NCBI GenBank assembly: GCA_048939765.1
Contig: JBHLPF010000017.1
Span: 1 to 64,000 of the forward strand
Reading direction: 5' to 3'
Length of the DNA: 64,000 nucleotides
Origin: Promethearchaeota archaeon
GTDB lineage: Archaea; Asgardarchaeota; Thorarchaeia; Thorarchaeales; Thorarchaeaceae
Shown piece after piece: positions 21,585 to 47,789 of the stretch. The translations under genes and the position numbers were made by a program. The notes below the pieces were generated by a model that worked only from the letters and a program-made list of their open reading frames with translations, was not told the origin of the DNA and ran no database searches. How positions within the stretch are numbered: position 1 is the stretch's first letter; every line of letters starts with the position of its first letter.

Positions 21585-21660
21585 TGGTAGCCCCGCCAGG
21601 ACTCGAACCTGGGTCCAGTGGGCCAGAACCACTGATGCTGGACCGCTACACCACGGGGCT
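21585..21660 (-). tRNA. tRNA-Gln(CUG), CCA encoded, no intron
   Basis: AGCCCCG...CGGGGCT-A-CCA acceptor stem; anticodon arm AGTGG-TTCTGGC-CCACT; T arm CCAGG-TTCGAGT-CCTGG. Confidence 0.96.
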
Positions 21661-37208: not shown

Positions 37209-38654
37209 GTGAATATCAAAAAGCTGTCTGAGAACCTGTTCGAGATTCCTCAAGATACAAAACCATGCATGACTGTGCCTGTCAAAATCTATGCTTCTAG
37301 TTCTCTTGTCCAAAAGATGAAGCAAGACAAGACATTCGAGCAGGGGGCAAACGTTGCATGTCTGCCAGGCATATATTCTCACAGCACTATTCTTCCGGAT
37401 GGCCATCAAGGGTATGGTTTCCCGATTGGCGGAGTAGCAGCCACTGATTATGAGAGTGGAGTGATATCCCCAGGTGGAGTGGGCTATGATATCAATTGTG
37501 GCGTTCGGGTGCTAACAACAAATCTGGATGAGGGAGATGTCAGACCGAAGCTAAGAGACCTGATAGAAACTCTCTTTCGTGATGTGCCCACTGGAGTAGG
37601 AAGAAGCGGAAAAATCCAGCTCTCAGATATGAGAGGCATTGAAGAGGTTCTAAAGAATGGGGCAGCTTGGGCTGTGGAAGAGGGATATGGGTGGGAAGAA
37701 GACCTGGACCATATCGAGGCGGGCGGTAATCTCGATATTGCAGATGCGTCAAAGGTTTCACAGCATGCAAAGAAGAGGGGGATGAGTCAGGTAGGAACAC
37801 TCGGATCCGGAAATCACTTCCTCGAAATACAACTGGTCGATGAGATTTATGATGAAGTCGCCGCAAGAGCCATGAACATAACAAGGAAGGGACAAGTCAC
37901 GGTCATGATACATAGCGGCTCGAGAGGACTAGGTCATCAGGTATGCAGCGATTACATCAAGACTATGACCCAGGCCATGTCGAAGTATAACATTCAGGTT
38001 CCGGACAGAGAGCTCTGCAGTGCGCCTACAACATCTCCAGAGGGGCAGGCGTACCTTGGTGCAATGAGTGCAGCTGCCAACTTTGCGTGGGCCAACAGGC
38101 AGACCATGATGCACTGGACACGCGAGGTGTTCTCAAAAATTATGGGACAGTCCGCTGAGGAGTTGGAGATGAAACTGATCTACGATGTTGCTCACAACAT
38201 GGGAAAAGTGGAGGAGCATGACATCGAAGGAAGAAGAAGGAGAGTTGTTGTCCATAGAAAGGGTGCAACTCGTGCATTTCCAGCAGAGCATCCAGAAACC
38301 CCTTCGGAGTACAAGAGCATAGGACAACCCGTCCTGATTCCGGGCACAATGGGAACGGCATCCTATATCCTTGTAGGAAATCCTAAGGGCATGGAGCTGA
38401 CGTTTGGCTCAACCGCCCATGGAGCAGGCCGGTTTATGAGCAGAAGTCGGGCCAAGAAGCAATTCTACGGTAAGGAGATTCAAAGCAGTCTTGCACGAGA
38501 AGGCATCATCGTGAAAGCTGCAAAGGGAATAGTCATCGCAGAAGAAGCCCCAGGAGCCTACAAGGATGTAGATGAAGTTGTGAGGGTTTCAGACGCTGTC
38601 GGTATTGCTACCAAGGCTGTGAGACTTCGTCCCATTGGTGTCATCAAGGGCTAG
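37209..38654 (+). CDS. rtcB: RNA-splicing ligase RtcB
   Basis: PDGHQGYGFPIGG, VGYDINCG, GSGNHFLE, HSGSRG, HRKGAT, PGTMG, STAHGAGR, EAPGAYK. Confidence 0.97.
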   Translation: MNIKKLSENLFEIPQDTKPCMTVPVKIYASSSLVQKMKQDKTFEQGANVACLPGIYSHSTILPDGHQGYGFPIGGVAATDYESGVISPGGVGYDINCGVRVLTTNLDEGDVRPKLRDLIETLFRDVPTGVGRSGKIQLSDMRGIEEVLKNGAAWAVEEGYGWEEDLDHIEAGGNLDIADASKVSQHAKKRGMSQVGTLGSGNHFLEIQLVDEIYDEVAARAMNITRKGQVTVMIHSGSRGLGHQVCSDYIKTMTQAMSKYNIQVPDRELCSAPTTSPEGQAYLGAMSAAANFAWANRQTMMHWTREVFSKIMGQSAEELEMKLIYDVAHNMGKVEEHDIEGRRRRVVVHRKGATRAFPAEHPETPSEYKSIGQPVLIPGTMGTASYILVGNPKGMELTFGSTAHGAGRFMSRSRAKKQFYGKEIQSSLAREGIIVKAAKGIVIAEEAPGAYKDVDEVVRVSDAVGIATKAVRLRPIGVIKG

Positions 38655-44140: not shown

Positions 44141-44803
44141 TCAAGTTTGACCATTTTTCTGCTTCTGGATGTACTCCGTGATATGATAATGTACCTCGGC
44201 AGTCACAAGCTCTATTGATCTCCTTGCATCAATGAAGACGAAATTGCCTATGTCCTCCTCAGTCATCTCAAGGTATGCCCGTCGAACCCTGACCAAACGA
44301 TCATATTGCTCAAACTGCGCATTGAGGCTGCCTTTTCTTTCGCTGACTCTTTTCAGGCCCATTTCAACTGGCACATCAAGAATAAACACGATGTCAGGCT
44401 CTGGGGCGGATATCTCCTCTCGATTCCGCCTCAAGATGTCCTTCCAATGCAATCCAGTGCTTGCAGACTGATATGCTCCAGTTGCAAAGAAATACCGGTC
44501 CATGAGGATAATCTTCCCTGATTCTAGAGCTGGTAGAATACGATTTTGGACGTGCCATTCTCTGTCACGAATAAACAACTCCAGCTCTTCTTCCGGGGTG
44601 AGTTCACCCTTTAGAGACCGTGCCCGAATCTCTTGACCCCAATCACTCTCATCTGTTGGCTCTCTAAGCCTCTTGACATCATAGCCTTCATCAATCATAG
44701 CATCAATTAGTCGGTCGCATACGGCCGTTTTTCCAGCACCATCCACGCCCTCTAGGACAAAAAGCATACCTTTCACAGTTGAGATTACTCCTATGTCATG
44801 CAT
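44141..44803 (-). CDS. tmk: Thymidylate kinase; start possibly 44776 or 44767
   Basis: EGVDGAGKT, REP, DR..H, MDRYF, AYQ, PDIVFILD. Confidence 0.95.
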   Translation of the reverse strand: MHDIGVISTVKGMLFVLEGVDGAGKTAVCDRLIDAMIDEGYDVKRLREPTDESDWGQEIRARSLKGELTPEEELELFIRDREWHVQNRILPALESGKIILMDRYFFATGAYQSASTGLHWKDILRRNREEISAPEPDIVFILDVPVEMGLKRVSERKGSLNAQFEQYDRLVRVRRAYLEMTEEDIGNFVFIDARRSIELVTAEVHYHITEYIQKQKNGQT

Positions 44804-44933
44804 TGAATTCCCGGACTCGCTCCTGTATTAGATGCTTCGGTGATGTAATATGTCCGGATAGCACCATCTACTCACCCATGAGTAGCTTCCTATCGCCATA
44901 CAATGTTTATTAGGAACATGAATCAGTATTCAT

Positions 44934-45141
44934 GTGAGAACCAAGGGGATCTCAAGGTATTCTCTCGACGTGGACACTCGAGGTGAGAAATCGGTAGGGC
45001 ATCCCCCTCCCATGTAACAAACTGCGATAGCGACTTGCGTCCAACCGCGTTCGTTCGTTCTTTGGGTCCCCTTTATAGGGGGGCCAAGGTCCCCTTGCAG
45101 AGTTCTCATGCCCCCGATTCGCTATGTCGTGTGTCCACGAC
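44934..45141 (+). ncRNA. Candidate pseudoknotted RNA or riboswitch-like leader of the cobalamin uptake locus
   Basis: Long closing helix, internal hairpins, three loop-to-3'-tail complementarities; TTTATTA at 44906-44912. Confidence 0.6.
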
Positions 45142-45191
45142 CCAATTCAAATCAAAGGTCAAATCAGGAATGTTTATTTGTCAACAACTTG

Positions 45192-45213
45192 TAGGATAGG
45201 TTAACCTATCCTA
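45192..45213. promoter_or_regulatory. Perfect 22-bp palindrome, probable repressor operator
   Basis: TAGGATAGGTT|AACCTATCCTA between a TTTATT box (about 45173) and GTG start 45222. Confidence 0.7.
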
Positions 45214-45221
45214 GGGATTGA

Positions 45222-45746
45222 GTGGGCTTGAACCGTCTGAGAATATTGATGCTTGTCATTGTATTAATGGTGATTCCTGTAGGCGCTTCGAGCCACAATG
45301 TTGCCATTTCGCACTATCTTGGACCAAATGCTAGTGGCGTATCGCTGCATATCGACTACGGTAATGGGACCACATCTACCCATACCGAGGTTGAAGGGCT
45401 GACTGTTCTAGACATCACTGAATCCGTGGCAATAGTTCAAGTGGACTGGACTGGCGATCTTGCCTTTGTATATTCAATCAATGGAGTGTCCAGTAAGGAA
45501 GAAACAGGACTCTGGTGGCAGTTTTGGGTCAACGGTGAATTCTCTTCAGTCGCAGCTAACCTCTATGAGGTTCAGGAGAACGATACGATAATCTGGAGAT
45601 TCACTGACTCCCAAGTGGAACCTCCATCGACCACAACGCCTGAGAACCCTGGACGGTATGCACCACTTGCTGTTGCGTCTGTTGGACTTGGATCTCTGGG
45701 AGTAGGTTTCTTGGCAGCCCTCTACCTAATGAGAAGGAGGAACTGA
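45222..45746 (+). CDS. DUF4430 (transcobalamin C-terminal-like, CbrS-like) membrane-anchored protein
   Basis: TVLD, FVYSINGV, WWQFWVNG...VAANLY...DTIIWRF; signal peptide and C-terminal TM. Confidence 0.85.
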   Translation: MGLNRLRILMLVIVLMVIPVGASSHNVAISHYLGPNASGVSLHIDYGNGTTSTHTEVEGLTVLDITESVAIVQVDWTGDLAFVYSINGVSSKEETGLWWQFWVNGEFSSVAANLYEVQENDTIIWRFTDSQVEPPSTTTPENPGRYAPLAVASVGLGSLGVGFLAALYLMRRRN

Positions 45747-45754
45747 TAACAGAT

Positions 45755-46501
45755 ATGAAGAAACAAGCCAGTCCATTCTTTCTTATTGTGCTTTTCCTCA
45801 TCGCGCCAGCTACAGGAACTCCAACGGATTACAATCCGAATCTTATGCCAAGGGATTCCGTCCCCACTAGAATAACTTGGAATGTAATAGAGGCTCCTGA
45901 AGCAGCATTTTCCTTATGGTTCTCAGGGACAGGGAATTGGCTGGCTCAGGAAGGCAGTCAAATGACATTCAATATTACCGGTATCAATAGCGACGTAGAG
46001 GGGCAATTGGAACTTGGTAATGTCACCTTGACATCAAATGATACAAACATAGCCAAGGATCTAACGCTGGGGGTGTGGGGCCTCACTCCCTGGCATCCAG
46101 GCCTAGTAGTGAAAATTGGAGATATCAACCTTGAGAGTCTGAACCAGACTGCATTCGCTGCTGCCGAGAGAGTTGCAGGCAACTATCTAAATGGTACAAT
46201 GGAGTCATCCTTTGAACCTGTGGAATCTAATGGAAGACTGTATGATTGTATTGTCTTTCAATATGAACAGGATCCTACAGGCTTTGGAGAACCGCAAATG
46301 ACCACTCTTGCTTATGATACTGAAACGGGAGTTCTTGTAAAAGCCAACACGAGCTACTCATTTGGTGTTCCCTATATCCTGATTCTTGGGCTCGAAGGAA
46401 TTCATATTCCCGGAGTGGACCCAATCCTTGTCTGGGCAGGATTCGCGATTGCTGGAGTGGTGCTAATCATAGTTACTGTTGTCATTAGAACCAGAAGATA
46501 G
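45755..46501 (+). CDS. Hypothetical exported protein with C-terminal membrane anchor
   Basis: Signal peptide, YDTETGVLV beta-rich region, C-terminal TM plus RTRR. Confidence 0.8.
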   Translation: MKKQASPFFLIVLFLIAPATGTPTDYNPNLMPRDSVPTRITWNVIEAPEAAFSLWFSGTGNWLAQEGSQMTFNITGINSDVEGQLELGNVTLTSNDTNIAKDLTLGVWGLTPWHPGLVVKIGDINLESLNQTAFAAAERVAGNYLNGTMESSFEPVESNGRLYDCIVFQYEQDPTGFGEPQMTTLAYDTETGVLVKANTSYSFGVPYILILGLEGIHIPGVDPILVWAGFAIAGVVLIIVTVVIRTRR

Positions 46502-46512
46502 AATGGAGTTGC

Positions 46513-47118
46513 ATGGAATTGCAGATGGAGATCAATCAGCAGGCGTCGATAGCACGAAGCCGCCAAGTCGCCATAACTGCAATCATGACTGCTCTCGCAC
46601 TGGTGGGCAACTATGTCTTTGTTGCTATACCCAATGTAGAACTAGGTTCCGGGATTCTCTTTGTGACGGCGTACCTATTTGGATTCCAGACTGGCGCTTC
46701 ATGTGCAGTGCTGATGGCCATCATTTTTGGCTCAATAAACCCTTGGGGAGGCCTTGTACCACAAATCTGGCTAACACAAGTCATAGGATGGTTATACATT
46801 ACTGCTGCAGGTGCTCTAATGGGGAGAGATAGGCATGGATTTAGTCACTCTATGAGAGATGTATGGATACTTGGATTCATGGGAGCATTCCTGACATTCT
46901 TCTTTGATATGCTCACGAATCTTGGCTATTCATGGGCGTTTGGAATACCGTATTGGCTTGCTATTGTTTCAGGATTTCCCTTCATGGTCGTTCATATAGT
47001 ATCAAATGCCATAATCTTTGGAGCTGTGGCGCCCCGACTGGACATAATAATCCGGAGCCAATTCTCGTCACAAATATGGAGTACTGAAACAGAAATATTG
47101 GGGCTGAGCGAAGAGTAA
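46513..47118 (+). CDS. ECF transporter S component, CbrT (cobalamin)-like
   Basis: AITAIMTAL (AxxxA motif), IPNVE, six TM helices, HIVSN. Confidence 0.8.
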   Translation: MELQMEINQQASIARSRQVAITAIMTALALVGNYVFVAIPNVELGSGILFVTAYLFGFQTGASCAVLMAIIFGSINPWGGLVPQIWLTQVIGWLYITAAGALMGRDRHGFSHSMRDVWILGFMGAFLTFFFDMLTNLGYSWAFGIPYWLAIVSGFPFMVVHIVSNAIIFGAVAPRLDIIIRSQFSSQIWSTETEILGLSEE

Positions 47119-47141: not shown

Positions 47142-47789
47142 TTGGAGCGTCCTAGCGTGTCTTGGAAAGAGAAATTCATTCAGCTTGTAGGGGCAGCAGA
47201 TGGCAGAGTGGCTCCTGCATTCGGACCTCATCATGCAGCAGTGGCTTTGGTGATGATTGGACGTGAACAGCCACTCGGCAGATATGAGCTCTGCCAGAAT
47301 CTTTCTGTGGGAGAAGGAAGTGCGCGTACTCTTTTGAAGCGTCTAACAGAGTCTGGGTATATTTCTCCGGAAGGAAAGCAGGGGCAGAGGCTGACTGATA
47401 GAGGACAGGAGCTGTTTGAGGAGGTTTCTAAGGAAGTCCCTATAGGCCTATTTCTTGATGCACCAGCTCTTGTCATGCATAAGAATGCATATGCAAATCT
47501 CATCAGAAACAAGGGCGATGACGTGAAGGACGGGATTAGGCAAAGAGATGAAGCTATCATTCAAGGAGGAGGATATGATAGTGCAGGAGCTACTACTCTG
47601 ATTATGAGAAATGGCTCTATTGTCATGCCGCCAGATGACTTTCATACACTCATTGAGTATGAGAGAGAGACTCTTCTAATTCTTGAGAGCTTAAGACCTG
47701 AAGAAAATGATGTCATTATCATTGGGTCAGCAGACGACCCCAATCTCGCGCGCGAAGTTGCAATGGCAGCTGTTATGACGCTTTTCTGA
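47142..47789 (+). CDS. wHTH transcriptional regulator (DUF4443/DUF2111-like)
   Basis: PLGRYELCQNLSVGEGSARTLLKRL HTH, GIRQRDEAI, GATTL. Confidence 0.8.
   Translation: MERPSVSWKEKFIQLVGAADGRVAPAFGPHHAAVALVMIGREQPLGRYELCQNLSVGEGSARTLLKRLTESGYISPEGKQGQRLTDRGQELFEEVSKEVPIGLFLDAPALVMHKNAYANLIRNKGDDVKDGIRQRDEAIIQGGGYDSAGATTLIMRNGSIVMPPDDFHTLIEYERETLLILESLRPEENDVIIIGSADDPNLAREVAMAAVMTLF

Follow-up and report, generated by a model that had tools for sequence, protein, structure and literature searches.

A Structured RNA Gene of Thorarchaeota and Its Probable Excision as a 138-Nucleotide Circular RNA by a tRNA-Intron-Type Pathway

Introduction

What kind of RNA lies upstream of a DUF4430 operon in a Thorarchaeota genome, and does it belong to that operon? 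The RNA in question occupies positions 44934-45141 of the window, the whole stretch of 64,000 nucleotides analysed here (contig JBHLPF010000017.1, positions 1 to 64,000). An earlier note, made from the letters of this DNA, described a switch-like RNA with several pseudoknots in front of a B12 uptake operon, proposed a ligand sensor or a ribozyme, and added that the RNA may be standalone. All features of the RNA discussed below are on the + strand unless another strand is named.

A Structured RNA Outside the Catalogued Families

The segment 44925-45150 folds more strongly than its dinucleotide shuffles on both strands (z about -2.8), and no Rfam family matches the RNA at the gathering score. 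Lowering the threshold to E<=10 for the region 44780-45260 returns only chance matches (CRISPR-DR10, SNORD50, potC), with no riboswitch, ribozyme, U6, rRNA, SRP or RNase P among them. The description of the locus as an uncatalogued structured RNA therefore holds. The earlier remark that a canonical B12 box is not evident also holds: none is present, and the comparison with cobalamin models, suggested at the time as a check, gives no match at the gathering score and none at E<=10 on 44780-45260.

Several other identities were considered and rejected. A universal RNA (SRP, RNase P or 5S) gives no partial match at E<=10, and the genome carries ordinary genes for these RNAs elsewhere (RNase P RNA on C46, SRP RNA on C12, 5S on C64). 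A fragmented or divergent piece of 5S or other rRNA is likewise unmatched in Rfam at E<=10, with the 5S gene located on C64. An RNase P/MRP-like RNA, suggested by the motif GGAAAGUCG in genus g6, is contradicted by a strand order of the helices unlike that of P1/P2/P4 and by the presence of a normal RNase P RNA. A C/D box guide of the kind found in the tRNA-Trp intron can be set aside, as neither a C box (RUGAUGA) nor a D box (CUGA) is seen in the excised part by inspection. The only tRNA of the window lies at 21588-21660, and an ARAGORN run for intron-bearing tRNAs flagged none.

Conserved Helices and the BHB Motif

The comparison of 25 homologues supports two long-range helices, T and X, and one hairpin, H, which provides the covariation in orthologous loci that had been asked of a genuine RNA. 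Across genera the alignments show a nearly invariant core and divergent flanks. Helix T is the outer processing stem, in which 44969-44981 pairs with 45127-45139, the "3′ exon". Both sides have changed in 7 of its 13 pairs, and in genera g9, g23 and g6 the whole helix is swapped for different complementary sequences. The pairing 44969-77/45131-39 proposed earlier is part of this longer helix. Helix X closes the core of the RNA by pairing AAUCGG-UA-GGGCAU (44989-45002) with AUGCCC-CCGAUU (45108-45119). This pairing had also been proposed, and it is borne out by 9 of 14 pairs in which both partners have changed (44989-94 and 44997-45002 with 45108-19). The UA bulge of helix X is paired in other genera, resulting in a perfect helix of 13-14 bp.

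Between helices T and X lies a BHB motif. Its 5′ side (44982-44988) consists of the central-helix strand GGUG (44982-85) and the 3-nt bulge AGA (44986-88), and its 3′ side (45120-45126) of the strand CGCU (45120-23) and the 3-nt bulge AUG (45124-26). The 4-bp central helix thus separates two bulges on opposite strands. Both sides have changed in three of its four pairs, as seen in the variants GGUG/CGCU, GGCG/CGUU, GUGG/CCAC, CGUG/CACG, GUGA/UCAC, AUGG/CCAU and GCGG/CCGU. The geometry of two 3-nt bulges and a 4-bp helix is alike in all six genera that carry the RNA. The motif also fixes the strand, because its two central-helix G-U pairs would become A-C mismatches on the other strand; the G-U pairs in the helices of the motif and the orientation of the TATA box both point to the + strand.

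Constructs from g1, g9, g23 and some g6 and g7 genomes fold as a canonical BHB. The flanks have the hBHBh′ form in G000, g1, g9 and g23, with an outer helix T of 12-13 bp and an inner helix X of 12-14 bp. In several g7 and g6 genomes the outer helix is shrunk to 2-3 bp or absent, leaving a relaxed form, so that cleavage there would need an enzyme of relaxed specificity.

The remaining pairings of the earlier note fared less well. The pairing 45027-33/45119-25 is contradicted by a 3′ side that varies uncompensated, and the actual partner of 45120-23 is 44982-85. Three further elements, namely the CUCGA/UCGAG hairpin, the tail hairpin GUCGUG/CACGAC and the GUGAGAA repeat, are limited to the closest relatives, and the mutually exclusive folds built on them therefore lack comparative support.

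A Circular Product in Environmental RNA

The fate of the transcript can be followed in environmental RNA. About one fifth of the sampled words from a 601-nt query matched in six metatranscriptome runs, four of which were mapped. The evidence consists of contigs assembled from the RNA runs, not of raw reads. In all four mapped contigs, one per run and from four studies, position 45125 is joined to position 44988. The contigs span 44988-45125 only, wrapping round, and the joint is placed without ambiguity. The ring contig of two runs is 168 nt long, which equals 138 + k-1 (k-1 = 30). In run X17 the contig stems from a relative whose hairpin H differs, while the joint is the same and the ring is otherwise identical.

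The genomic DNA at the locus is linear: the window continues through both flanks, and the best-matching DNA runs contain nearly the whole 601-nt stretch, flanks included. RNA contigs of the four mapped runs do not cover the flanks or the operon, and the flanks may merely be unassembled.

In pre-tRNA introns at position 37/38, the splicing endonuclease cuts after the second nucleotide of the bulge. Here, in both 3-nt bulges, the joint follows the second nucleotide, which matches BHB cut sites at G44987|A44988 and U45125|G45126. Since the contigs are confined to 44988-45125 and joined at the BHB cut sites, the product is a circular RNA of 138 nt. There is good reason to believe that this ring results from a tRNA-intron-type cut and closure of the transcript of a separate gene. 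That the ring is the end product, and not an intermediate, is suggested by the same contigs.

The enzymes of such a pathway are encoded in the genome. Two EndA paralogues (PF01974) are found at G000:C71:38118-38372 and G000:C37:124367-124627, in open frames of 192 and 235 aa, and a single RtcB gene (PF01139) lies in the window at 37341-38651 (+). EndA and RtcB are predicted to process the precursor. The presence of two paralogues points to a heteromeric EndA, a form able to accept relaxed BHB motifs; this would be relevant to the several g7 and g6 genomes whose outer helix is short. Tolerance of relaxed motifs has been reported for heteromeric EndA (PMC5829648).

The RtcB gene is located 6.3 kb upstream of the RNA gene, and a spacing of 6-9 kb recurs in four more RNA-bearing genomes. 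The same spacing is also kept in one genome without the RNA, which indicates plain synteny and not a functional linkage.

Architecture of the Ring

The minimum-energy fold of the 138-nt sequence as a circle recovers helix X and hairpins C and H, and adds one helix between the joiners. The ring has a stem X of 12-14 bp, which closes a junction containing hairpins C and H and two long, almost invariant joiners. Joiner J5 (CCCCCUCCCAUGUAACAAACU, 45003-45023) leads from helix X to hairpin C (45024-45058), which is built of three 4-bp tiers (GCGA/UCGU, GCGA/UCGU and UGCG/CGCG) and is invariant within the genus. Its loop carries a 32-nt insertion in L010 and L031, and by inspection its apical tier is compensated in g7 (UUGCG/CGCAA, UGCAU/AUGCA). 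Hairpin H (45062-45087), also noticed earlier, is variable and peripheral. It covaries by inspection (UCCCC/GGGGG, GCCC/GGGC, ACCC/GGGU) and is missing from genus g6.

Joiner J3 (AAGGUCCCCUUGCAGAGUUCUC, 45086-45107) contains the core GGUCCCCUUGCAGAGUU, the most conserved stretch of the RNA. The core hardly changes among the six genera, L037, L041 and L047 carrying single-base variants. In the circle fold, CUC (45007-09) and UGUAA (45013-17) of J5 pair with UUGCA (45095-99) and GAG (45100-02) of J3. Equivalent pairings are possible in other genera, where the changes are one-sided only, so we infer from the modelled circle that J5 may pair with 45095-45102 in the ring.

One frame of the minus strand is free of stops round the whole ring (138 nt = 46 codons). 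A coding ring was considered and rejected, as the + strand frames all contain stops and the stop-free frame belongs to the minus strand. The open frame is judged a matter of chance, because its probability is about 1 in 9 per frame, the ring length varies among genera and the RNA is on the + strand.

The Leader and Its Pairing with the Invariant Joiner

The 5′ flank (44934-44987), the "5′ exon" or leader, forms a pseudoknot, P1*, with the ring sequence. Its segments GAGAAC (44936-41) and CAAGGGGAUC (44942-51) are complementary to 45088-45107. This duplex is the best one in nearly all of 19 homologues (z 0 to -4.3), and the leader motif is kept despite variable spacers and positions. The segments 44934-52 and 45087-45109 had earlier been paired as a closing helix. 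Their complementarity is confirmed in all genera, but the pairing is a leader pseudoknot with an invariant 3′ strand and does not close the structure. The J3 strand hardly varies, and one compensatory change is seen, in L047. The leader probably masks the invariant strand of the ring, GGUCCCCUUGCAGAGUUCUC, until excision. As the leader-J3 duplex overlaps the J5-J3 helix, the invariant strand probably switches its partner when the ring is released.

Promoters and the Downstream Operon

The RNA gene has a conserved promoter, AATGTTTATTAGGA (44902-44915), with the TATA-like box TTTATT at 44906-11. It is kept in all homologues of the same genus, and other genera have TATA-like boxes in its place. 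The position of the box places the likely transcription start at about 44932-36. No clear oligo-T terminator is found downstream of the RNA, which makes read-through into the operon possible.

The promoter and operator of the DUF4430 operon (45173-45213) lie outside the RNA. The second TATA-like box pointed out earlier, at 45173-79, is conserved together with the palindrome at 45192-45213 in all genera, whether or not they carry the RNA. The palindrome TAGGATAGGTTAACCTATCCTA is a perfect one of 22 bp, located just 3′ of the operon TATA box, and it has a single further site in the genome, a weak one (C37:104021). It is probably the operator for a repressor, for which the DUF4443/PH0730-like protein of the same operon (47142-47789) is a candidate. 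Judged by these motifs, the operon appears to be under protein operator control.

In genera g3 and g5, which have no RNA, tmk is followed by the TATA box and palindrome and then by DUF4430, with about 80 nt between the genes. The RNA is located upstream of the operon on the same strand in most genomes, and directly 3′ of it lie a PAS-domain gene in G024 and an SBP_bac_5 gene in G012. The earlier proposal to check whether homologues always precede B12 genes is answered in the negative by these two genomes and by the RNA-less operons of g3 and g5. The separate promoters, the RNA-less operons and the unrelated downstream genes together mean that the RNA is an insert between two divergent promoters, not a leader required by the operon. 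The caveat that it may be standalone was well placed: the RNA has its own promoter, and the operon a separate promoter and operator.

Two further motifs belong to this region. The sequence GTATTAGATGCTTCGGT (44825-44841), upstream of the tmk start, recurs with small variations in most of the family's genera; it probably represents the promoter region of tmk, on the minus strand. The sequence AATGTTTATT is common to the RNA promoter (44902-44911) and the DUF4430 promoter (45169-45178) in this genome and its closest relatives only. Such sharing could reflect promoter duplication, the trace of an insertion or merely a strong consensus.

For the reading of the genes as a B12 uptake operon, the DUF4430 domain is the whole basis of the link to B12. 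By hydropathy, within 45222-47118 of the window, the 174-aa DUF4430 protein and the 248-aa protein each combine a signal peptide with a C-terminal membrane anchor, and the 201-aa protein (46513-47118) has several membrane-spanning segments, resembling an ECF S component. NCBIfam gave no match for the three downstream proteins tested, and in Pfam and NCBIfam together a match exists only for the first of the three operon proteins (DUF4430). A sequence search of the PDB with the 248-aa protein returned nothing significant.

Distribution

A combination of blastn and covariance model R1 finds one copy per genome in 27 of the 86 genomes of the same family. The RNA is present in 12 of 16 genomes of g1, in all of g7 (7/7), g6 (3/3) and g9 (2/2), and in the single genomes of g23 and g8; by the same searches it is absent from g5 (0/28), g3 (0/7) and g4 (0/5). 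Of 151 genomes sampled from the whole phylum, model R2, which covers only the core of the RNA, is positive in 5, and these all belong to this family. Five other genera of the family, each represented by one genome of 94-99% completeness, gave no match to the same model at E<=1. When one genome per species (185,579 species) was scanned for an exact pattern, there were 20 matches, of which 11 are titled Thorarchaeota and the rest uncultured archaeon, Promethearchaeota or Hermodarchaeota, which places the host in the Thorarchaeota group of the Asgard archaea. A metagenome scan with the overly degenerate pattern ACTGCGAWWGCGANTTGC returned 80 loci, none of which matched R2. Within the searched genomes, the RNA is confined to six genera of one Thorarchaeota family.

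Proposed Mechanism and Alternative Explanations

Taken as a whole, the locus is best explained as a stand-alone gene whose functional product is a 138-nt ring excised at a BHB, a view that we hold with considerable confidence. Transcription would begin about 25 nt past the TATA box at 44906, and the precursor would fold into the long processing stem, helix T, bearing the canonical BHB. The tRNA-splicing endonuclease would then cleave at G44987|A44988 and U45125|G45126, and the excised piece would be closed by an RtcB-type ligase into the ring, the presumed functional product. The leader (GAGAAC..AAGGGGAUC) would pair with the invariant joiner, masking it or guiding the folding until the ring is released.

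The role of the ring is a more tentative matter. The ring exceeds the neighbouring protein genes in conservation, and this conservation, the dedicated promoter, the rRNA-like stem and the RNA found in four environmental studies argue that it has a real role in the cells of Asgard archaea. With reserve, we would suggest that the ring acts in trans, probably as the RNA component of an RNA-protein complex. It could be the RNA subunit of a Thorarchaeota-specific RNA-protein machine, or a trans-acting regulator, derived from a leader-inhibited "pro-RNA". As part of the same tentative proposal, the tRNA-splicing enzymes would free an active, invariant 20-nt strand from its leader. Searches for antisense targets of the invariant strand found no genome site with <=4 mismatches, leader-like bipartite sites occur at background level (2 in the genome and 3 in the control), and the invariant strand is not complementary to the leader of the DUF4430 mRNA (z above 0). 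These searches yielded neither a target nor a partner protein or ligand.

Three other explanations share part of the evidence. The DUF4430 mRNA might have a long 5′ UTR in which the RNA is a BHB intron; splicing would then tune the operon, and the ring would be a by-product or co-product. The shared strand and upstream position in most genomes, the missing terminator and the precedent of Haloferax HVO_1309 (PMC7714728) all suit such an arrangement. It is nevertheless unlikely, given that a conserved TATA box and operator intervene between RNA and operon in every genus, that the excised part is far more conserved than the supposed exons, and that the invariant strand does not match the operon leader. 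The operon is moreover unchanged in g3 and g5 without the RNA, and unrelated genes follow the RNA in G012 and G024. The proposed riboswitch, for cobalamin or another ligand, or a self-cleaving ribozyme controlling the downstream uptake genes, would account for the highly conserved core with variable peripheral helices, the pseudoknot and the DUF4430 gene downstream. Such control is highly improbable and the original proposal is abandoned: no riboswitch or ribozyme family is matched at E<=10, a promoter and operator intervene, and sister genera keep the operon without the RNA. Excision as a ring also means that the RNA cannot remain in a 5′ UTR, and the RNA is cut where a protein enzyme would cut a BHB substrate, not at the core of a ribozyme.

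It may also be asked whether the ring is an intermediate that is re-opened elsewhere and becomes a linear RNA in permuted order, as happens when archaeal rRNA matures. Its long stem and BHB give the gene the layout of an rRNA processing stem, and many archaea re-linearise circular pre-rRNAs (PMC12918454). Against this course stand the ring-spanning contigs of four studies, two of which are cycles of exactly the circle length, and the lack of any sign of a second processing site, although contigs could miss one. Such re-opening is, in our estimate, quite unlikely, and the stand-alone gene with a functional ring is retained as the preferred explanation.

Comparison with Known Systems

Asgard archaea are the closest archaeal relatives of eukaryotes. 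To our knowledge, a defined gene is rare among archaeal circular RNAs other than tRNA introns and rRNA intermediates. A literature search found no published RNA of this family, and the analysis removes one false candidate for an archaeal B12 riboswitch. Like the cobalamin riboswitches (RF00174, RF01482, RF01689), the RNA is structured, has long-range pairings and lies upstream of possible corrinoid genes; unlike them, it matches no cobalamin model, has no B12 box, is not part of a continuous 5′ UTR and is excised as a ring.

Another likeness is offered by the tRNA-Trp intron of Haloferax, Pyrococcus and Halobacterium, a stable circular RNA with a C/D box guide. In both cases the excised BHB "intron" is a functional RNA, here presumably so, and pairs with its own exon sequence, but the flanks of the Thorarchaeota ring are not tRNA and by inspection the ring has no C or D box. 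In Haloferax HVO_1309, a 46-nt BHB intron is located in a mapped 5′ UTR (Schwarz et al. 2020, PMC7714728). There too, a circular RNA is excised at a BHB from non-coding sequence ahead of a protein gene, but the Thorarchaeota ring is larger, its conservation far exceeds that of its flanks, and the genes downstream of it have a separate promoter and operator.

The precursor is organised like archaeal 16S and 23S pre-rRNA, in which the flanks form a long processing stem with a BHB and the excised RNA is circularised. Unlike pre-rRNA, the Thorarchaeota ring is 138 nt long, has no rRNA similarity, is lineage-specific and is dispensable in sister genera. The nearest parallel is the SRP RNA of Thermoproteus tenax and T. 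uzoniensis, which undergoes a BHB-type cut and is ligated to a stable functional ring (Plagens et al. 2015, PMC4731332). Both are stand-alone non-coding RNA genes with a tRNA-splicing endonuclease cut, predicted in the present case, and a ring as the result. The Thermoproteus RNA is a permuted universal RNA with the partners SRP19 and SRP54, whereas the Thorarchaeota ring belongs to no known family. It is a new RNA family, presumably made via the known archaeal BHB/EndA/RtcB route, and it extends the known moonlighting of the tRNA-splicing machinery.
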